In this document: piece after piece, positions 1 through 9,203 of the stretch
How positions within the stretch are numbered: position 1 is the first letter of the stretch
Layout of the letters: every line of letters begins with the position of its first letter
Virus record (IMG/VR): IMGVR_UViG_2913123054_000005
Location: 1-37,915 of that record
Direction: 5' to 3' (one strand)
Length of the DNA: 37,915 nt
Source: a virus
Lineage: Duplodnaviria > Heunggongvirae > Uroviricota > Caudoviricetes
Position numbers and translations under genes: made by a program
The notes under the pieces: generated by a model
Database searches by the model: none
Told to the model about the DNA's origin: nothing
What the model saw: only the letters and a program-made list of their open reading frames with translations

Positions 1-1038
1 TTAACGCTTATCAGCCACCAGCTTGAGCGCATGTTCCAGCACGTTAATGTCAGCGCCCGCTTTATGGGCATTTTCACTTAAATACCGCCGCCACTGACGC
101 GCGCCGGGAATCCCCTGGAACAGCCCCAGCATATGCCGGGTGATATGACCGAGATACGTCCCCTGGCTGAGTTCACGCTCAATGTACGGGTACATGGCGC
201 GCACCACTGCCACCGGGTCGGCATCGGTATCCGAGGAACCAAAAATCTCACGATCCACCGCCGCCAGAATGCCTGGGTTTTGATACGCTTCACGCCCGAC
301 CATCACGCCATCCATATGTTGCAGGTGTGCTTTAGCCTCTTCCAGTGACTTGATGCCGCCGTTAATCGACATAGTCAGATGCGGGAAATCACGCTTCAGT
401 TGATAGACGCGCGGGTAATCGAGCGGCGGGATCTCACGGTTTTCTTTTGGGCTTAAACCGGAGAGCCAGGCTTTACGCGCGTGGATGATAAACATCTCGC
501 ATTCGCCTTTGCCGGAAACGGTGTCGATAAAATCACAGAGAAATTCATAGCTGTCCTGGTCGTCAATGCCAATACGCGTTTTCACCGTCACTGGAATCGA
601 CACTACATCGCGCATCGCTTTTACGCAGTCAGCCACCAGTTGCGCATTCCCCATCAGGCACGCGCCAAACATGCCGTTCTGTACCCGGTCTGACGGGCAG
701 CCGACATTCAGGTTGATCTCATCATATCCGCGCGCTTCTGCCAGCTTCGCGCACTGCGCCAGCGCCGCCGGATCGCTACCGCCCAACTGCAACGCCACCG
801 GATGCTCTTCTTCACTGTATGCCAGGTAATCACCTTTACCGTGAATAATCGCCCCTGTGGTCACCATTTCGGTATAGAGCAACGTATTACGGGAGAGCAG
901 ACGCAGGAAATAACGGCAGTGTCTGTCCGTCCAGTCGAGCATGGGAGCAATGCTAAACCGAGAATTCCAGTAAACACCAGTTTTTTCAGGCATCACGCTG
1001 GTTTGATTAATTTTTTGTGTTTCATGATTATCGTGCAT
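1..1038 (-). CDS. dusA: tRNA-dihydrouridine synthase A (complete, 345 aa)
   Basis: Full-length ORF; translation has the Dus-family TIM-barrel flavoenzyme look ([16 protein letters not shown]..., NLNVGCPS). Its start codon abuts the prophage integrase. Confidence 0.85.
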
Positions 1039-1071
1039 TTTTGAACATTTCAGGCTATTTTTCTCGCGTTA

Positions 1072-1106
1072 GGTTCCCGCACAGGTTCCCACGTTTTATG
1101 GGAACC
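1072..1106. promoter_or_regulatory. GGTTCCC direct repeat plus inverted GGGAACC between dusA start and int start; candidate int/dusA control or arm-type site
   Basis: ggttccc at 1072-1078 and 1084-1090, gggaacc at 1100-1106, read directly from sequence. Confidence 0.3.
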
Positions 1107-1126
1107 CGAAATAACGAGGTCGTGTA

Positions 1127-2224
1127 ATGGCGTACTATAACATAGAGAAACGACTAAAATCCGATGGCACACCACGCTATCGCTGTAATGTGATTATCAA
1201 AGAAAAAGGTGTTATCACTTACAGGGAAAGCAAAACATTCCCTAAACATGCTCATGCCAAAACATGGGGCACACAGAAAGTGATGGAATTAGATCTATAT
1301 GGCATTCCATCATCAAATGCAGTTGACGGACTTACAGTCCGTGACTTACTACACAAATATTTAAATGACCCAAATGCCGGAGGTAAAGCAGGCCGTACTA
1401 AAAGATATGTGCTAGAACTGCTTATGGATAGTGACATCTCCGCGATCAAACTATCTGAACTGACAGAAAATGACGTAATTGAACATTGCAGGCTAAGAAA
1501 CAACGCTGGCGCAGGTCCAGCAACAGTCAGCCACGATGTTAGTTATCTTGGCAGTGTTCTGGATGCGGCCAAACCTGTATACGGAATTAATTACACATCA
1601 AACCCGGCGAAAAGTGCTCGTCCATATTTACTTAAACTTGGTTTGATTGGTAAATCATACCGTCGTAATCGTAGACCAGCATCTGATGAACTGGACATGC
1701 TCATTGAAGGCCTTCAACAACGATCTACTCATAAATGCTCAAAAATTCCGTTCGTTGATATCCTCAAATTTTCTGTGTGGTCCTGTATGCGAATCGGAGA
1801 AGTATGCCGGTTACGATGGGAAGATCTCGACCAGGAACAAAAATCTATACTCGTAAGAGACAGGAAAGATCCACGCAAAAAGGAAGGCAACCACATGAAA
1901 GTAGCCTTGCTTGGGGAAGCCTGGGATATCGTCCAACGACAGCCCCAAAAATCGGAATTCATTTTTCCATATAACAGCACTTCTGTTACTGCGGGATTTC
2001 AGAGGGTAAGAAGCAAATTAGGTATTAAGGATCTGCGATACCATGATTTGCGTAGAGAAGGGGCAAGTCGCTTATTTGAGGCTGGTTTTAGTATTGAGGA
2101 AGTCGCCCAGGTTACAGGGCATCGTTCATTAAACGTGCTATGGCAGGTATATACCGAACTGTATCCGAAATCTTTACATAATCGTTTTGAAGAGCTCCAA
2201 AGGAGCAGAAATAAGACCTCTTGA
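1127..2224 (+). CDS. int: Tyrosine-type site-specific integrase (dusA-associated)
   Basis: 365 aa; C-terminal catalytic region with H-x-x-R (YHDLRREGAS) and later GHRS...Y motifs; divergent from and adjacent to the dusA 5' end. Confidence 0.85.
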   Translation: MAYYNIEKRLKSDGTPRYRCNVIIKEKGVITYRESKTFPKHAHAKTWGTQKVMELDLYGIPSSNAVDGLTVRDLLHKYLNDPNAGGKAGRTKRYVLELLMDSDISAIKLSELTENDVIEHCRLRNNAGAGPATVSHDVSYLGSVLDAAKPVYGINYTSNPAKSARPYLLKLGLIGKSYRRNRRPASDELDMLIEGLQQRSTHKCSKIPFVDILKFSVWSCMRIGEVCRLRWEDLDQEQKSILVRDRKDPRKKEGNHMKVALLGEAWDIVQRQPQKSEFIFPYNSTSVTAGFQRVRSKLGIKDLRYHDLRREGASRLFEAGFSIEEVAQVTGHRSLNVLWQVYTELYPKSLHNRFEELQRSRNKTS

Positions 2225-2272
2225 CACTGTTTATCCATACAGTTAAAAATAATACTGTATACAAACACAGTA
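2221..2272 (+). promoter_or_regulatory. Promoter with -35 TTGACA and two tandem LexA (SOS) boxes CTGT-N8-ACAG upstream of the dinI-like gene
   Basis: ttgaca at 2221-2226; box 1 cACTGTttatccatACAGt at 2225-2242; box 2 tACTGTatacaaacACAGta at 2253-2272. Confidence 0.7.
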
Positions 2273-2285
2273 TAGAGGGACTTTT

Positions 2286-2534
2286 ATGCGTATTGAAATC
2301 TGCATAGCCAAAGAAAAAATGACTAAAATGCCAACCGGTGCTGTGGATGCGTTAAAGGAAGAATTAACCCGACGCATCAGTAAACGTTATGACGATGTAG
2401 AGGTGATCGTAAAAGCCACCAGCAACGATGGCCTTTCTGTTACACGCACCGCAGATAAGGATTCTGCAAAAACATTTGTTCAGGAGACTCTGAAAGATAC
2501 CTGGGAGTCTGCTGACGAGTGGTTTGTTCACTAA
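2286..2534 (+). CDS. dinI: DinI-like DNA damage-inducible protein
   Basis: 82 aa; [11 protein letters not shown]...[16 protein letters not shown] closely resembles the DinI family as recalled from memory; preceded by LexA boxes. Confidence 0.8.
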
Positions 2535-2602
2535 TTAACACGTAAAATCTGTAACGGCTGGAAATCATTCAATACTCGCACTATCGAACGTTCACAAGCC
2601 AA

Positions 2603-2646
2603 CCGCAGCACGTCCTGCATACGACGTGTCTGCGGTTTTTCTTTTT
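2603..2646 (+). terminator. Intrinsic terminator after the dinI-like gene
   Basis: ccgcagcacgtc / gacgtgtctgcgg stem (about 12 bp, one bulge) followed by tttttctttttc. Confidence 0.6.
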
Positions 2647-2649
2647 CGC

Positions 2650-3084
2650 TTACATTGCACCTGGTTCTTCCGGCCACTGAATATCCGGAGCACTGGAAGG
2701 GTCAACCGCATCAAGAGCATCCAAATAATCAAGCCACAAATTGTATTGAGCCAGTTCTTCACCTTTCAGACGACCTATGGCAGCTTTGCCAGGCCACTGC
2801 TTGTTGTTCATATAATTATTGGCATCATCGAGGCGACGTTTTTTTTCTCTGGTTGCCGAGGAAATGAGTTGTTCCTGCGTTGGTTCCGGTGCATCTGCCC
2901 ATACAGGCATCCCATCTTCTCCGGCAACCCGGACTTTCCCTGGATTCACTCTCACAAATTCCAGAAAAACATCTTCCCCAACTTCCACACCACTTTCAGG
3001 CCAGGTGCCTGAACGCTCATAGTCTGCCTTCAAAATTAATGGGTAGAAGGCATTTGTTTTGCTGTCATACAGGTATTTATTCAT
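2650..3084 (-). CDS. Tail fiber assembly protein (Tfa-like chaperone)
   Basis: 144 aa; position immediately downstream of the tail fiber gene and a Tfa-like C-terminal region. Confidence 0.65.
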   Translation of the reverse strand: MNKYLYDSKTNAFYPLILKADYERSGTWPESGVEVGEDVFLEFVRVNPGKVRVAGEDGMPVWADAPEPTQEQLISSATREKKRRLDDANNYMNNKQWPGKAAIGRLKGEELAQYNLWLDYLDALDAVDPSSAPDIQWPEEPGAM

Positions 3085-3087
3085 CTT

Positions 3088-3645
3088 TCAGAAACCTATC
3101 AAAATACATGAACCACCAGAAATAAAATCACTGGCGCGAGAAATAATGGTTGATGTCGGTCCTGTTCCAACATTTATTGCAAACGTGGTAATTCTCCCGC
3201 TGGTTGGTTCATATCCGGCACCCACTGCAAAGCCTAAAATTCCCCCAGGGAAAGGAATAGGTAAGTTGATAACCTGGTCACCATCATGCGGGGGGATCGG
3301 CACCCATTGAATAATTTTACCCGGTAGTTTTTGCCAGTAACGTTCTGACTGGAAACTGCTCATATCGGGAATATAGTTAATATCACTGGTACCAACTGGA
3401 CGTTTTGCAGCTTCTTTTAACTTAAGGAAGAGTGGTAGTGCTTCCCTTAGCTGGTCATGTCTCGATTTATCAAGTGACAGCCCGGCGTCTTCAACTATTC
3501 CAGCAAGTTCCTCCTGCAACATATCAAAGTAGTCATCATCCAGATCGGTGGCAGGCGTACCGGTCTGGGGGTTGCCACGGGTAAAACCGTTCTTACCCGC
3601 GCCGAACTTATCCTTCTGCGCGGTTTTCGTGTCTATACGATGCAT
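3088..3645 (-). CDS. Putative tail fiber protein (short)
   Basis: 185 aa, Gly/Pro-rich C-terminus; sits between a baseplate gene and Tfa. Unusually short for a fiber. Confidence 0.5.
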   Translation of the reverse strand: MHRIDTKTAQKDKFGAGKNGFTRGNPQTGTPATDLDDDYFDMLQEELAGIVEDAGLSLDKSRHDQLREALPLFLKLKEAAKRPVGTSDINYIPDMSSFQSERYWQKLPGKIIQWVPIPPHDGDQVINLPIPFPGGILGFAVGAGYEPTSGRITTFAINVGTGPTSTIISRASDFISGGSCILIGF

Positions 3646-3648
3646 GAA

Positions 3649-4233
3649 TTACTCCGGATATTTAAAAATTACGTAGGTATGCGACGGGCAGAGTTTGTTA
3701 AGCACACACTCGACAACGGTGTCGCCCCAGATACGCAGTGCGGAATCACAGGGATCGCCACATGTCATCCAGGTGGTGTTGGTGGCGGCTGGCATGTTGA
3801 CCTGCCAGTAATACCGCCATTCCGGTGCATTCACCGCGTCAGTACAGGCCGATGAGCAGGTGAACGTGCTTTTATCGTATCGCGTGATGGTGGCATCTGG
3901 TCTGCCCAGGGCAGCAAGCTGTGCAAGATAAAAATCCTCGTTGATGCCGCCCGCCAGGTTAACCTTCGCATCCAGCCGTTGCTGACGCTGGAGAAGGGTC
4001 TGTGTCCCTGCGGGAATACATTCATCCGGCAGGCCGCACAGACGCTCCCAGCGATTTATCAGTTCGGTGGTGGTGCGCGGATCCAGCTCCCGCATCAGGG
4101 CATCCGCACGCTGATGAACGCGGGTTAATGACGGTGCCGCACCGGCAATCGCCGGATCGCTGGCTGACCACGCCGGACCGGGCGGCAACAGTGCTGACAA
4201 CAGGCGAATGTAATCATCGTTTGTCACGTCCAT
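3649..4233 (-). CDS. Baseplate/tail protein, Mu gp48-like (tail protein I family)
   Basis: 194 aa; synteny at the end of a Mu-like baseplate module. Confidence 0.55.
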
Positions 4234-5282
4234 GAAATCGTCCCCAGAACCGCCAGTTCATTTTTTGCAATGGAGGTATTGTCTGCCGGTGCAAGCAACT
4301 GATGGCTGTATTCCCCGTTCGCACCGGAAATCGCCTCACTGATACGCGACACCTTCAGTTCTCCCTGCGGATAACCATCACGCAGCAGGAACGAACGCAA
4401 CTCGGCGGTGATGGCAGCCCGTATTTCCGGTGTGTCCGGCGTCACACGGATATGAAAATCCACTTTATGCGCCACCGGCCTGAATACATACAAATCAGAG
4501 CCTGCCACCGGGGCCAGTGGCCCGATATGTTGTCTTGCCGCCGTTTCCGTTGATTCTTCCGGAATGGGATTAATCAGGTCACTGCTGGCAATCATCACAC
4601 CGACAGTTCCCGTTCCCATCCAGTGACGGTATGTCCATGCGCGGGTAATGCCGGGCACTTCTTTAGCCCAGACGACATAGTCCACGTCAGCCCCGCCCTG
4701 CGGCGTCCAGTAATACCGCTCAATGACGCGGGCGCGCCACGTTTCCAGATCTTCAGTATCGAATCCGCCAGTCAGGGTATCTGCAACACCGGAAGACGGC
4801 AGACCATTCACCGGCGTGACCAGGATTAATGCCGTACCGTCGTCAGCGTTACCGACCGCGCCTGTAGTTGAGCAAGTGATCGGCACACGCAGGACACCAC
4901 CGGAGCTGGTTGCATCGGCAGTTGCCGTGTACTGAACCAGGTCATCGCGCTGAATCACGCTCCCGGCAGTCACCTTCAGGCCATCGCTGACACCTTCCCA
5001 GCGCATATACCCGCTGGCAGCCGTGGCCCCCTTGCGCGGACACCGTTTCATCGCAGCATGTCGCGCCAGCCAGGACTCATCGCACAGGTCAGGCAGCATA
5101 TTCATTGCCAGATAATCGATGTACCCGTAAACCGTATGCAGCGCCGCCGCATACACCTTTGCCCGCACGTCTTCATCCATGCGCCGGAGCGTGTCGCTGA
5201 CGTCCAGCCTGGCGAATAAATCGTTACGGAGCATACTGATATTTTCTGCCAGCGTCGGGCGCTGAAATTCACTGTCCGCCAT
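4224..5282 (-). CDS. Baseplate J-like protein (Mu gp47-like)
   Basis: 352 aa; size and synteny in baseplate module. Confidence 0.65.
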
Positions 5283-5697
5283 GCGTTATCGCACTCCACA
5301 GATCATCAAAAGAAATCATTACCGGTCCGTCACGGCGCCAGAGAGTGATACTGTTACCCAGCTCATTAATCCCGGTGCGGCGGATATCCAGATCAATACG
5401 GGACACCACGCCGTCATCAATCATCCATTGCAGGCATTCGCGGATATACCCCCTTACCGTCTGCACCAGCTGATTGGTCAGTTTGCTGCGCTGAAGCAGC
5501 CACAGTCGGGAGCCGTAACGGTCATTCTGTACCGCAGGCCAGGTATCCCCCCACCATCCCATCGGGACGTCGGCGTTGTCATCAGGCTCCGCCCGCCGCC
5601 AGGTAAACAGGGAAATCACCACGGCGCGGGTCAGCGGATCCAGCGGTGCGCTGGCGCAGGTGCGTTTACCGTTCACCGTCAGCCACAGTTCCATCAT
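5269..5697 (-). CDS. Baseplate wedge protein, Mu gp46 / GPW-like
   Basis: 142 aa; synteny. Confidence 0.55.
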   Translation of the reverse strand: MMELWLTVNGKRTCASAPLDPLTRAVVISLFTWRRAEPDDNADVPMGWWGDTWPAVQNDRYGSRLWLLQRSKLTNQLVQTVRGYIRECLQWMIDDGVVSRIDLDIRRTGINELGNSITLWRRDGPVMISFDDLWSAITHGGQ

Positions 5698-6242
5698 GCC
5701 TCCATCGCTTTATCAGGTTTGTCGGTGTTACTGCCCTGACCGTTCTCTCTGTGACGATGCCCGTTATAGGCAAGCCGCATCGCTGACATGGTGGTGCCGC
5801 TGGAGTCGCACAGGTCTTTCACCTGTCCTGTCACTTCCAGGTCCATTTCAAAACGTGCTTTAGGTGAATTGCGAAACGTGATCGTTTTACCTGCACCGTC
5901 CACCACGATCCCCTCCCGGGTCAGCGTCACGGACTGCCCCTGATCGTCATAGACAGCCACCTCACCCGTCTGCAGCCCTTTCAGGCGGTAGCGCCGGTCC
6001 GACACCGTAACAACCACCGCATGAGAACGGTCGCCATCCGGAAACAACACCACCGCTTCCGCACCGCTGTTTGCCCTTGCGGTAAAACCGTAGGGTTCAA
6101 GATGTTCAACCCCGGCTTTTGGTTCACCGGCAATCAGGGACACATCCACGGTCTGACATTTCGTGGCGGCACTGATGCTTTTCACCACGGCCCGCCCAAT
6201 CAGGCCGAGGAGTTGTCGCTGCATGGCTTCAATCGTCCTCAT
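5694..6242 (-). CDS. Baseplate assembly protein V-like (spike, Mu gp45-like)
   Basis: 182 aa; synteny and size. Confidence 0.55.
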   Translation of the reverse strand: MRTIEAMQRQLLGLIGRAVVKSISAATKCQTVDVSLIAGEPKAGVEHLEPYGFTARANSGAEAVVLFPDGDRSHAVVVTVSDRRYRLKGLQTGEVAVYDDQGQSVTLTREGIVVDGAGKTITFRNSPKARFEMDLEVTGQVKDLCDSSGTTMSAMRLAYNGHRHRENGQGSNTDKPDKAMEA

Positions 6243-7321
6243 CAGAACGGGTCCTCCTGTACTCTGGCTTTTTTCTTTTTCCGCGCGCCGGGGGCTTCGG
6301 GTTCAGGCAGATAAGCATCAGGCGGGCCGACACGGATTTCCGTCAGGGTGCCGTTCTGGTCCTGAGTAAACGTGACTTCCGAAACAAGCAGTTCGGTATT
6401 GTCGAAACCACAGACCGGATCAAAGACAATCACCCGCTGGTTGGGCTGCCACAGCGTACCGTTACCTTGTCGCCAGCCCTGCACCACATAGGTGGTTTCA
6501 TCCGTCCGCGCCGCCCGTTGTCGGGCTTCAAAGTCCGCACGGGCAATACAGCCTGCCCCCGTAGCCTGCCCTGTCTGCCTGATATACATCGGACGGTAAC
6601 GGGCAATAAATGCGTCCTCTGTGCGGGCCCGCAGCGCGGTGGTGGTGGCCTCACCGAAATCATCGTCGTTTCCGGCACGCTGCCCCGCCACCTGGTAAAC
6701 AGAAAATCGCTCCCGGATACTCTTCTCCGTATCGCAGGAAAGGATGTTTTCCCCGAGTACCAGCGCAGTATGTGCCCGCGTTGAGCCAATACCGCCAATC
6801 ACCAGCCTGCCGTGCGGGTCGTCGTAAGCCAGTGCCTGCTGCTGACCGAGTATTTTGTTGATTACCTCAATCACTGTTTCACCGTGATCAGGCTGAACAT
6901 CAGGAATAACACCCGACGGCGCACCGCTGTTCACCACCTCAATGCCGAAAGGCGCAGCAAGCGCCTGCGCAATCTGCACCAGCGAGCGTCCGTTAAACTG
7001 TGTCGGTTCGGCTGCACAGTCAATCAGGTCAGCCGTCAGACTACGTCCGGCAATACCGGTGCTGACCGAACGGGCATCGTAACGAACGGGAGTCGCCTCC
7101 ACCCAGCCGGTGATCACCAGCTCATCACCAATCAGCACTTCCACTTTTGAACCGTTTTTAATGCGCGGCTGAAGCGTGGTGATACCCTCATCTCCCGGCC
7201 ACTGGCGGGTGATCTCCACACTGAAATCCCGCGCCAGCCGTTCAATACCGGCACCGATGCGCACCGATGTCCAGCCATTCCACTCCCGGCCATTTACCCG
7301 TAGCGTGACATTGTCGTTCAT
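6242..7321 (-). CDS. Baseplate hub / late control D-like protein (Mu gp44-like)
   Basis: 359 aa; synteny between the DNA circulation gene and the spike gene. Confidence 0.55.
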   Translation of the reverse strand: MNDNVTLRVNGREWNGWTSVRIGAGIERLARDFSVEITRQWPGDEGITTLQPRIKNGSKVEVLIGDELVITGWVEATPVRYDARSVSTGIAGRSLTADLIDCAAEPTQFNGRSLVQIAQALAAPFGIEVVNSGAPSGVIPDVQPDHGETVIEVINKILGQQQALAYDDPHGRLVIGGIGSTRAHTALVLGENILSCDTEKSIRERFSVYQVAGQRAGNDDDFGEATTTALRARTEDAFIARYRPMYIRQTGQATGAGCIARADFEARQRAARTDETTYVVQGWRQGNGTLWQPNQRVIVFDPVCGFDNTELLVSEVTFTQDQNGTLTEIRVGPPDAYLPEPEAPGARKKKKARVQEDPF

Positions 7322-8658
7322 TGCACTGGCACCTTCAGAGGGATCACCGGCACAAAGCCGGGATGCGTAATGGCATTACGCCGGATAATGTCCGCGTCAC
7401 GCGCCGCGTTATCAAACCAGGTCGCCGCCAGCACCAGCGCGGGTAAAACCTCATCCGGTGTGCGCTGAATGATCCGTGCAGACTGTTCAAGGCGCGTGTT
7501 GATATCCGCATTCAGATCTGCTTTCACCCGGCGCAGCGCCAGAAACAGCGCATCGCTGGTTGTACGGGACAACTCCTTATCAATTGCCGTATTCAGTGTG
7601 TCGCGAATGTCAGTCAGTTCTTCCCACGTCGGCAGGTCAACCGTGTTTTTCACCGCCGGTGCATTGTTCAGTGCCGGATGCGTGACGGAAGGCCAGCCAG
7701 TGCTCTGCGCGGGTGTTGTTGCCTGCCCCACTGCGGAATTCTGCATCACCGCGGAAGTTGTTGGCGCAGGCAATCGGGTGACGGCATACGCCGCTTCGCT
7801 GATTGCGGTCGTACGAAGGGTGCTGGCAACCACGTTACGCTGCTGCGTCGCCGTGGCGGTGGTTTTACTGTCCGTTTTCCAGACGCCGCGCGGTTGCAGA
7901 TCGCTGCCGAGGCTGACACCGGAAAGCGTTTTGATCATGGTGACCAGGTCGCTGGCGTTACCATAAAGGCGTTTCCCGGTACGCCACATTTTCTGCACCT
8001 GCTCAACGAAATTTTTGCCTGACGATGGCGGCGGCAGAAGTACCGAGATATCCCCCTGCAACAGCCTGGCGGCATCCGATACGGCAGAATCCACCACTTT
8101 CATCGCATCAGAAACATACCCCAGCATTATGCTGGCATTACCGATAACGTCGTTCTGCACGAAATCCGCCACACCATCGATACTGAAACCGCTGAAGCTG
8201 TCACTGATGCAGTCATCCAGTGCAGAACAGGATGACATCAGCGTCTGCGCCGTCGCCGCACCTGATGTGGGGTAAGAGAGTTCTCCTGCTTCGACAAACT
8301 TCAGGTCAAAGCGGACAATACGCCCTTCACTTTTCGATGTGCTGACCCGAACTTCCCCGTCAACACAGACTTTCAGCTCACCATATGTCGGGTGGACAAG
8401 CGTGCCGGGACCGGGTTTATTCAGCGCTTCAATCAGGCGATCGCGCTGGTCAAAGCAGTCATCTCCCACCACATAAGCTGTGATGGACGGGCGGAAAGTG
8501 ATTTTCCCCAGGTCTTCGGTATAGGGTTTGTCGCGGTTTGGGTATTCATGCGTTTCAACCCGACGTCCTACCGGGGCCCCTTCATCTTCTACCTTGAACG
8601 GAACGCCGCGAAACGACGCTTCAACCAGTCTGTCTTTCCACGCCATTGTCTGCACCAA
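7318..8658 (-). CDS. DNA circulation protein-like tail protein (Mu gp43-like)
   Basis: 446 aa; lies downstream of the tape measure on the late strand as in Mu-like tails. Confidence 0.55.
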   Translation of the reverse strand: MVQTMAWKDRLVEASFRGVPFKVEDEGAPVGRRVETHEYPNRDKPYTEDLGKITFRPSITAYVVGDDCFDQRDRLIEALNKPGPGTLVHPTYGELKVCVDGEVRVSTSKSEGRIVRFDLKFVEAGELSYPTSGAATAQTLMSSCSALDDCISDSFSGFSIDGVADFVQNDVIGNASIMLGYVSDAMKVVDSAVSDAARLLQGDISVLLPPPSSGKNFVEQVQKMWRTGKRLYGNASDLVTMIKTLSGVSLGSDLQPRGVWKTDSKTTATATQQRNVVASTLRTTAISEAAYAVTRLPAPTTSAVMQNSAVGQATTPAQSTGWPSVTHPALNNAPAVKNTVDLPTWEELTDIRDTLNTAIDKELSRTTSDALFLALRRVKADLNADINTRLEQSARIIQRTPDEVLPALVLAATWFDNAARDADIIRRNAITHPGFVPVIPLKVPVQ

Positions 8659-8674
8659 TATGATTTGTTATAAG
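8646..8674 (+). promoter_or_regulatory. Candidate sigma70 promoter for the moron (TTGTCT, 17 bp spacer, TATAAG)
   Basis: ttgtct at 8646-8651, tataag at 8669-8674; a cgcttc/gaagcg palindrome follows; SD aaggagagg precedes ATG 8739. Confidence 0.35.
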
Positions 8675-8738
8675 CTACTCTGTTTCAGACGCTTCTTTCG
8701 AAGCGCCAGAGAACATTTACCTTTAAGGAGAGGTATAA

Positions 8739-9176
8739 ATGGAAATGTTTTTGCCGTTAATACTGGGTTTGTTGCTAGCCGTTTTCATAGGACGGTGGGC
8801 TTATAAAAAAGAAAAGACCAAGCCCAGAAAAATAATGGCTGCTCTTCTCGGTGCTGTTTTTGGATTCTTCGCACCACTGATAATCGCAGCGTTTGTTATG
8901 ACTCCCCCAGAAAAAGAAAAAACTAAAGAGGAGCTTGTTATGGCAAAGCTCACACGCTCTTTGGATGGTTGTCCACTTGATATGAAAGATCGCGTGAAAG
9001 AATCAATGAATGATCCCGATAGTTTTGAATGTATCGAAACTAACGTTATACGTCGTAAAGATGATTACGTCATGATCATGCAGTTCCGTGGCAAAAACCA
9101 ATTAGGGGGAATGGTTAAAAATGTCGCCAAGGCGGAATATGACTCAGAGGGAAATTTCGCAAGGTTCATCAATTAA
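8739..9176 (+). CDS. Membrane-anchored moron protein (two predicted TM helices plus soluble C-terminal domain), function unknown
   Basis: 145 aa on the strand opposite to all flanking tail genes; strong SD; N-terminus has two hydrophobic helices each followed by a K/E-rich EKEKTK-like stretch. Confidence 0.65.
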   Translation: MEMFLPLILGLLLAVFIGRWAYKKEKTKPRKIMAALLGAVFGFFAPLIIAAFVMTPPEKEKTKEELVMAKLTRSLDGCPLDMKDRVKESMNDPDSFECIETNVIRRKDDYVMIMQFRGKNQLGGMVKNVAKAEYDSEGNFARFIN

Positions 9177-9180
9177 AAAC

Positions 9181-9203
9181 AATGGGAGGTTTACCCTCCC
9201 ATT
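9181..9203 (-). terminator. Hairpin overlapping the tape-measure stop codon, followed on the minus strand by GTTTTTAATT; moron boundary
   Basis: aatgggagg / cctcccatt 9-bp perfect stem with the taa stop in the loop. Confidence 0.5.

Follow-up and report, generated by a model that had tools for sequence, protein, structure and literature searches.

Lambda-type integrases target the 3′ ends of tRNA and tmRNA genes, and a copy of the gene end carried in attP regenerates an intact gene. The prophage described here follows the same restoring logic, but in this case it is the 5′ end of a protein-coding gene, dusA, which is replaced, and the element must therefore supply a start codon together with signals for transcription and translation, and not just a terminator-proximal end. 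The dusA-specific genomic islands, or DAI elements (Farrugia et al. 2015, PMC4482086), resemble this prophage in that their tyrosine recombinase is divergent from the 5′ end of dusA, which they replace with a new one, and in that their two ends are marked by semiconserved direct repeats of 21 bp, located in the conserved beta-1 region. The excision experiments of that study concerned islands of Acinetobacter and Pseudomonas, whereas the element examined here belongs to an enterobacterial phage group.

Phage 1720a-02 (Phi-stx2dact, KF030445.1; Balasubramanian et al. 2019, PMC6328086) inserts into dusA at a 7-base core, 100 bp inside the gene, and provides an in-frame replacement, PhidusA′; this was confirmed by PCR across the junctions and by deep sequencing of attL and attP. 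The present prophage has in common with it the in-frame PhidusA′ replacement, the insertion point about 100 bp into dusA and the location of int beside attL, and the first 200 nt of the 1720a-02 prophage record are the same as positions 934-1133 of our window (the whole stretch of 37,915 nucleotides that was analysed), with the exception of position 943. The backbones and hosts differ: 1720a-02 is a lambdoid Stx2 phage of E. coli and C. rodentium, while here an SfI/SfII/SKA5-like myovirus backbone is found in a non-coli Escherichia. The sequence shared by attB and attP is 17 bp in this host, compared with 7-8 bp when the host is C. rodentium or of the K-12 type, and the protein is lengthened from 331 to 345 aa because the native dusA of this host has a short 15-codon 5′ end. 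The same block of attP, dusA′, int and dinI is carried, at 98.8-99.3% nucleotide identity, by SKA5, which also shares much of the structural region with this prophage, and by mEp460, a lambdoid siphovirus whose left arm diverges beyond approximately 80 bp from the core. Both the mechanism and the integrase module are already known, and the case is an ordinary one.

At the left end of the prophage, dusA (1-1038, minus strand) forms a 345-codon ORF whose stop codon is the first triplet of the window, and the ORF of a tyrosine integrase of 365 aa lies at 1127-2224 on the plus strand. The two genes are divergent and are separated by a spacer of exactly 88 bp (1039-1126), which belongs to the P′ arm of attP; an earlier sequence-only reading of this DNA had described the same arrangement. 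It had also stated that integrases of this class target the 5′ coding end of dusA and bring a replacement for it, which is indeed published both for the family (PMC4482086) and for 1720a-02 (PMC6328086). We consider it almost certain that the prophage sits in the 5′ end of dusA as a result of site-specific recombination, and that it supplies the gene with a replacement start.

The origin of the individual segments was established by alignment of four sites: attB of sister strains, attP of mEp460 and SKA5, attL in the window, and attR in the same genome. The core common to attB and attP is 17 bp, TCGAGCAT(A/G)GGAGCAAT, and occupies window positions 935-951. At the empty site of the sister strains (L136 and L137) the core, TCGAGCATAGGAGCAAT, is preceded by ...CCGTCCAG and followed by AGAGAAACGG..., and in the attP of SKA5, mEp460 and AH02 (a circular 43.7-kb record with intact attP) it lies between ...CATCCTA and GCTAAACCGAG.... 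The attL copy (935-951, TCGAGCATgGGAGCAAT), which corresponds to I30-A-P-M-L-D35 of DusA when read on the minus strand, has host DNA to its left and phage DNA to its right; attR (8164-8180 of contig L013) has a phage left flank and a host right flank. The attB stretch expected on regeneration is ...CCAGTCGAGCATAGGAGCAATAGAGAAACGG..., the predicted attP stretch is ...CATCCTATCGAGCATAGGAGCAATGCTAAACC... and the predicted attB stretch is ...CCGTCCAGTCGAGCATAGGAGCAATAGAGAAACGG....

The sequence-only reading had held that the att core could not be placed from the window alone, and had proposed alignment with a prophage-free dusA and a search past the far side for a matching core. The core is present in the window as a single copy: a direct-repeat search and a core search allowing up to 3 mismatches revealed no second one there; the window ends inside the prophage. 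The proposed alignment placed the junction at 935-951, and the search past the far side led to attR, 997 bp beyond the window end and in the same contig as the window, the two being identical over all overlapping stretches compared. The attL and attR repeats are 37,977 bp apart and agree in 16 of their 17 bases. At position 943 attL has G, where attR, attB and all the attP sequences examined have A, so that the attL copy is an imperfect repeat; the change is synonymous (Pro32, CCC versus CCT) and leaves the main conclusion unaffected.

In K-12-type E. coli, attB differs from attP at positions 943, 946 and 951, and K-12-type lysogens have the phage bases at these positions in attL and the host bases in attR, a pattern which places strand exchange inside 935-942. 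The strand-exchange segment is most likely to be TCGAGCAT, within which the exact cleavage positions would lie. Exchange to the right of 943, as derived from the G/A difference, was considered and dropped, because the attB of the sister strains has A and the K-12-type lysogens point to the left.

The host-derived part of dusA (1-934, minus strand; beginning with the final base of codon 35 and running to the end of the stop codon) is continuous with the empty-site allele of the sister strains, and other assemblies of the lineage (L008-L010) match it at 100% identity. Its identity to E. coli dusA is 91.3-91.6%, compared with 94.1% to the representative of E. whittamii, the nearest named relative among the matches listed in a scan of species representatives; the dusA body matches all 5426 E. 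coli genomes at 90-95%. The empty site was located by reconstructing the native protein and looking for exact matches: joining the attR stub to the attL body gives a DusA identical to P0001 (331 aa) of “unclassified Escherichia”, which is encoded in prophage-free zur-dusA-pspG loci. A degenerate, over-permissive native-attB pattern applied to species-representative genomes gave no prophage-free genome of the host lineage among the matches listed. The native N-terminus is MSAESQTAYPAYRFS (15 aa), compared with 29 aa, beginning with MHDNHETQ, in the window version. The earlier impression that differences are concentrated in the first ~30 residues of DusA was correct, as the empty-site allele of the sister strains differs only upstream of residue 30. 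The gene is not identical to prophage-free alleles through the start codon, the native 5′ end being both shorter and different.

The phage-only dusA′ segment (952-1038, minus strand) comprises the first 29 codons of the chimeric dusA, among them the two candidate start codons (1036-1038 and, for Met16, 991-993). It is 98-100% identical to mEp460, SKA5, 1720a-02 and the AH02 record, and is missing from the empty site of the sister strains. Since residue 30, encoded by the first codon of the core, is where the Pfam Dus domain starts, the replacement is confined to the N-terminal tail. In comparison with the E. coli lysogen UPEC 26-1, identity is 91.3% over 1-934 and 99.7% over 935-1300 (1 mismatch in 366 bases), and the free phages mEp460, SKA5, Lys8385Vzw, 1720a-02 and phiSTEC1575 match the window from about 935 through int at 97.7-99.3%. 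The dusA′ fragment adjoins int in free phage genomes (it is annotated as “tRNA-dihydrouridine” in SKA5), and in all phage copies examined its ORF is uninterrupted and keeps the frame; the dusA′-int segment of mEp460 and SKA5 is found in the middle of the record, with different DNA to its left. By the four-way alignment, codons 1-29, both ATGs and all upstream DNA are of phage origin, and, judged from these sequences, it is the phage alone that supplies them; for the first codons this had been proposed in the sequence-only reading.

The integrase matches PF00589 over residues 190-346 (E = 7.6e-21, 75.1 bits, cut-off 27.1) and was also assigned to PHROG integrase families. The motifs MRIGE (starting at residue 221), HDLRR (306), GHRS (331) and VYTELY (341) contain residues that are candidates for the catalytic Arg, His-x-x-Arg, His and Tyr; Pfam revealed no arm-binding domain at the N-terminus of the protein. 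It is identical to the 1720a-02 integrase at 361 of 365 residues (98.9%) and to that of mEp460 at 360 of 365 (98.6%); the latter is listed among the DAI hits (PMC4482086), and on the basis of this homology the protein is classed as a dusA-associated tyrosine integrase (DAI). With regard to the features of DAI elements, the core covers dusA codons 30-35 with int upstream and divergent, the nearly perfect attL/attR pair (16/17) compares with published repeats of ~21 bp, and the replacement 5′ end consists of in-frame phage codons joined to a core encoding IAPMLD. Excision of the element as a circle, by which wild-type dusA is re-formed, has been demonstrated experimentally for the closely similar 1720a-02 integrase (PMC6328086); the present prophage may behave likewise, to which the empty sites of the sister strains and the intact attP of the free phages and the AH02 circle point indirectly. 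A PrtN-type excisionase (recombination directionality factor) is encoded at 37358-37618 on the plus strand, approximately 1.3 kb before attR (phrog_1300, E = 3.7e-40; PF11112, PyocinActivator, for the same gene in L013), a position matching that of the annotated excisionase of mEp460.

The heptamer GGTTCCC has six matches in the whole window, three of which fall inside the spacer, within a stretch of 35 bp (1072-1078 and 1084-1090 on the plus strand, 1100-1106 on the minus strand). The other attP arm contains two GGYTCCC copies (L013 8103 and 8114), 44-61 bp from the core, and approximately 80 bp of the P arm are conserved across 641 E. coli genomes. These repeats are candidate arm-type integrase-binding sites.

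The geometry of the locus alone suggests that the dusA promoter would be phage-supplied, lying in the spacer or deeper in the phage, and we infer that the chimeric dusA would be transcribed from phage DNA to give active DusA. Alternatively, the fusion may be real but silent, an open frame without an effective promoter or ribosome-binding site, in which case lysogeny would amount to a dusA knock-down; we regard this as improbable. Standard prediction of promoters and terminators over 850-1350 gave no hits, no sigma-70-like promoter passing the consensus scan on either strand. A less stringent scan of our own yielded candidates that are all weak; on the dusA strand the best of them (-10 GATAAT, 1032-1027) lies within the annotated ORF and would imply a start at Met16. 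However, putative -10 and -35 elements have been reported for other DAI elements (PMC4482086). No clear Shine-Dalgarno sequence precedes either ATG on direct reading, and a good native promoter candidate (TTGCCT-19-TGcTATAGT) is left behind at attR. The differences between the dusA′ peptides of mEp460 and the window are mostly amino-acid changing, which suggests weak constraint on the tail, yet the frame begins with ATG and is open in the lysogens examined as well as in the phages, and the RFS just before the core is kept at the protein level although its codons differ from those of the native allele. While dusA has been described as dispensable (PMC4482086), K-12-type E. coli has a homologous dusA 5′ end (83% identity), and there it is the normal allele.

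This last similarity (72/87, gapless, over codons 1-29) could also indicate that the 5′ end was acquired from another host, by allelic recombination with the dusA of a K-12-type E. coli, the integrase being merely adjacent. We see scarcely any chance of this, as the segment is far closer to free phage DNA than to the K-12-type gene, and the displaced native stub is located at attR, in the same contig, joined to the other arm of the phage; moreover, the int-dusA′ module has also been found within a plasmid ParB gene (a secondary-site insertion), into which it carried the dusA′ fragment along. The attP and attR data refute this origin. Least credible of all is an intergenic insertion leaving an intact native dusA untouched, which the distance of 88 bp between the integrase and the annotated start might suggest, but which is refuted by phage homology that covers the first 104 bp of the ORF and reaches 935, by the different, shorter 5′ end of the empty-site allele and by the four-way att alignment.

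The 345-codon dusA 5′ end of K-12-type E. coli might itself be the fossil trace of a DAI element that integrated long ago, a tentative idea which we consider rather doubtful; the adjacent DUF2713 genes yjbL and yjbM are possibly part of the same fossil. In its favour, the short type (MSAES/MPAES...RFSIAPML) occurs in at least 120 species representatives (Enterobacterales, Aeromonas and Rheinheimera; identified with the degenerate, over-permissive native-attB pattern) and in about one-fifth of E. coli genomes. The K-12 type cannot be aligned with the short type beyond a few codons from the att core, but is homologous to the phage-borne dusA′ (72 of 87 nt) and equal to it in length. On the other hand, neither an integrase remnant upstream of the gene (tblastn) nor a displaced native stub upstream of zur was found in E. 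coli 042, a promoter-like GTTATGGTATAGTA seen by direct reading upstream of the K-12 type resembles the promoter of the short type, and the dusA of C. rodentium is also 1038 nt (PMC6328086). A literature search for dusA together with yjbM returned nothing relevant. In the reverse direction, the phage may equally well have captured its dusA′ from a K-12-type host.

With regard to the prophage itself, we conclude that a temperate phage of approximately 38 kb, combining structural genes that resemble those of the SfI/SfII/SKA5 myoviruses with an int-dusA′ integration module, has inserted itself site-specifically into the 5′ part of the dusA gene of its host. Its attP holds a 17-bp copy of the dusA sequence for the first Dus-domain strand (IAPMLD), followed by an imitation dusA 5′ end (29 codons, a start codon included), upstream DNA and the divergent int. 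The tyrosine integrase recombines attP with the matching dusA sequence, the exchange most likely occurring within TCGAGCAT. At attL the host dusA body is fused in frame to the phage 5′ end, with a chimeric DusA of 345 aa replacing the native protein of 331 aa, and at attR, about 1 kb past the window, the native 5′ stub and the native promoter are left stranded beside zur.

Since the mechanism and this integrase module have already been published, the practical value of the analysis lies in correct annotation. The left boundary of the prophage is at 935-951, inside the dusA ORF and not at int, and the right boundary is 997 bp past the end of the window. The 345-aa DusA is a host-phage chimera and should not stand for the native allele when phylogenies are built or alleles typed. 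The int-dusA′ cassette is carried by phages whose backbones are unrelated and can also enter plasmids, and lysogeny could bear on DusA levels, and hence on tRNA D20 modification.

An alignment of the prophage end in the window (attL) with the far prophage end (attR), the empty site of sister strains (attB) and the free or circular phage (attP) revealed a 17-bp identity, TCGAGCATAGGAGCAAT, bordered by reciprocal flanks, by which the att core can now be placed at window positions 935-951. The window's far end still lies inside the prophage, and attR was reached by looking up the exonuclease encoded at 36749-37321, which led to L013, a locus further along the same contig. Past the gene of a PrtN-type excisionase (37358-37618), L013 carries two small minus-strand genes and then ...CATCCTA TCGAGCATAGGAGCAAT AGAGAAACGGTATGCGGG..., continuing into a 15-codon dusA start (MSAESQTAYPAYRFS...) and zur. 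The search past the window's far side thus yielded the matching core repeat at L013 8164-8180, 997 bp beyond the window end; the two cores are 37,977 bp apart. The attR stub joined to the dusA body of the window encodes a 331-aa protein identical, residue for residue, to a native DusA in public data (P0001, “unclassified Escherichia”); it is encoded at zur-dusA-pspG loci that carry no prophage (L136-L140). Comparison with this empty-site allele, which has the different 15-codon start, located the junction. The int-proximal block of mEp460 and SKA5 is situated mid-record, with unrelated phage DNA to the left of position 935, and the same attP arrangement was found in a circular 43.7-kb record of E. 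coli AH02. The latter (“plasmid unnamed3”, NZ_CP081704.1, 43,680 bp) has an intact attP (P arm, core, the phage-borne dusA 5' segment dusA', and int) and looks more like a phage genome, excised or circular, than a plasmid.

The sequence-only reading, that a prophage had integrated at the 5' end of dusA, is confirmed as an observation and supported in its interpretation. As it had described, the integrase gene is divergent from dusA and starts 88 bp from it. The minus-strand dusA (1..1038; 345 codons; PF01207, Dus, at residues 30-340), whose stop codon opens the window, is separated by a spacer (1039-1126) from the plus-strand int, which starts at 1127 (365 codons; PF00589, Phage_integrase, at residues 190-346) and is directly followed by a DinI-like gene (2286-2534). 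Deeper inside, the window contains Mu-like/SfII-like tail, head and terminase genes, and then a lambdoid-style early region.

The junction is also visible in sequence identity. The dusA body is only 90-95% identical to that of each of the 5426 complete E. coli genomes (5426/5426), which indicates that the host is a non-coli Escherichia; the nearest named species representative recovered was E. whittamii (94.1%). Contig VATU01000002.1 of GCA_005781255.1 is identical to the window over the overlaps compared (1-11038 and 30749-37915), and the protein is listed in the source databases under “unclassified Escherichia” and “Escherichia sp. E4385”. Across 880-1300, approximately 900 E. coli genomes match at 95-99%, and the free phages SKA5, mEp460, Lys8385Vzw, 1720a-02 and phiSTEC1575-Stx2k match approximately 935-2300 at 97.7-99.3%. 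Identity to the E. coli lysogen UPEC 26-1 rises from 91.3% over 1-934 to 99.7% (one mismatch) over 935-1300, a step which on its own places the junction at 934/935. The dusA of a record labelled Enterobacter hormaechei B17-3 (CP169086.1) is 91.6% identical to that of the window. E. coli 042 shows this same value and genuine Enterobacter loci approximately 83%; the record may be mislabelled.

Codons 1-29 of dusA (952-1038), with the two candidate start codons they contain (1036-1038, and 991-993 for Met16), and all DNA upstream are exclusively phage-derived, so the expectation that the phage supplies the first codons was borne out. The noted concentration of differences in the first ~30 residues also held: since the Dus domain starts at residue 30, the swap alters the N-terminal tail only, 29 aa replacing 15. 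Read on the strand of dusA, the core is ATT GCT CC(C/T) ATG CTC GA (I30-A-P-M-L-D35) and encodes the first conserved strand of DusA; directly before it, both versions have RFS, specified by different codons. In mEp460, SKA5, 1720a-02, AH02 and a plasmid-borne copy alike, the dusA' segment forms an open frame that starts with ATG.

In this host attB and attP are identical over 17 bp, and the exchange was narrowed further through K-12-type E. coli (those with the long dusA 5' end), the attB of which is TCGAGCAT-T-GG-T-GCAA-C. The attL of UPEC 26-1 has phage bases at 943, 946 and 951, and the attR sites of one O157:H7 strain and of FDAARGOS_497 have host bases there, which makes strand exchange within TCGAGCAT (935-942) most likely. 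Consistent with this are the 7-base core that PMC6328086 reports for phage 1720a-02 in C. rodentium and an insertion into a plasmid ParB gene, a secondary-site integration with only ~4 bp of identity: its phage sequence starts at the GCAT of the core. There, in the 205-kb plasmid pEND_Eco 18005 (NZ_CP126947.1), the int-dusA' module (L003 3981-5286), with a prophage behind it, lies inside the ParB/RepB partition gene, and the plasmid record lists dusA' as a truncated DusA pseudogene. The one core deviation of the window's attL is a synonymous G at 943 (Pro32), to the phage side of where strands are exchanged; G is shared by loci L008-L010, and A is found in lysogens of another lineage (L007, L011 and L012), attR of the same genome, the sister-strain attB and every attP examined. 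This G either entered with a variant phage or arose by mutation once the prophage had integrated.

Since the DNA upstream of 951 is phage throughout, any dusA promoter there would, as proposed, be phage-supplied by geometry; as to the promoter itself, a consensus scan of both strands of 850-1350 returned no sigma-70 promoters and no terminators. A looser scan gave two weak candidates, CTGAAA-15-GATAAT on the dusA strand (-10 at 1032-1027) and TTGATT-17-GATTAT on the int strand. A better candidate, TTGCCT-19-TGcTATAGT, belongs to the native allele and is retained at attR. Within L013 6919-8250, whose first gene has its 3' part in the window (37667-37915), this candidate and a stub ORF of ~26 codons point into the prophage. 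Both face, on the same strand, a 189-aa gene and a YafO-toxin-like gene, and the stranded promoter candidate could drive these end-of-prophage genes.

The integrase is identical at 361/365 residues to that of 1720a-02 and at 360/365 to that of mEp460, and its motifs MRIGE (from residue 221), HDLRR (306), GHRS (331) and VYTELY (341) hold candidate catalytic residues. Three of the six GGTTCCC copies in the entire window lie in the 88-bp spacer (1072, 1084 and, inverted, 1100); on the other attP arm, GGTTCCC and GGCTCCC occur at 44-61 bp from the core, and ~80 bp of this arm are conserved in 641 E. coli genomes. We infer that these repeats are putative arm-type Int sites. A DinI-like gene is immediately 3' of int in every module copy examined and seems to travel with the integration cassette as conserved cargo; the mEp460 record annotates a promoter between the two genes. 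One identical int-dinI-dusA' cassette, with the same chimeric DusA protein, occurs in closely related hosts on two unrelated backbones, one with a tail of lambda type (GpJ, Lom, tail fibre), the other, like the window, with a contractile Mu/SfII-like tail (L007 versus L008/L009). The same mosaicism was seen in free phages (mEp460 and Stx phages versus SKA5).

That integrases of this class target the dusA 5' end and bring a replacement, as had been stated, is documented in both published systems (PMC4482086, PMC6328086). The class of dusA-associated integrases was defined in Farrugia et al. 2015 (PMC4482086), who showed that its islands replace the dusA 5' end, carry 21-bp semiconserved flanking repeats and provide a substitute beta-1 strand, and whose phage hits include mEp460. 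For 1720a-02, Balasubramanian et al. 2019 (PMC6328086) demonstrated integration 100 bp into dusA, creating the in-frame PhidusA', with attL, attR and attP verified by junction PCR and deep sequencing. The integration module described here is the same (~99% identical); the phage backbone and the Escherichia lineage differ. The mechanism is already known, and there is nothing new in it.

The two chromosomal types of dusA 5' end are unrelated, and only a few codons away from the att core they can no longer be aligned. The short type is present in this host and about one fifth of E. coli genomes (e.g. DA61218, L005 3952-3996), in which zur is directly upstream of dusA and the DUF2713 genes are absent; its pattern was matched by at least 120 species representatives (Enterobacterales, Aeromonas, Rheinheimera). 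The K-12 type has yjbL/yjbM (DUF2713) upstream. E. coli 042, searched for an integrase remnant and a displaced native stub, contained neither. Codons 1-29 of the phage dusA' (952-1038) align without gaps and at equal length with the K-12-type end of this strain (L004 3452-3538; 72/87 nt, 83%). The K-12-type 5' end could be the fossil of an old integration; equally, the phage could have copied its dusA' from a K-12-type gene.
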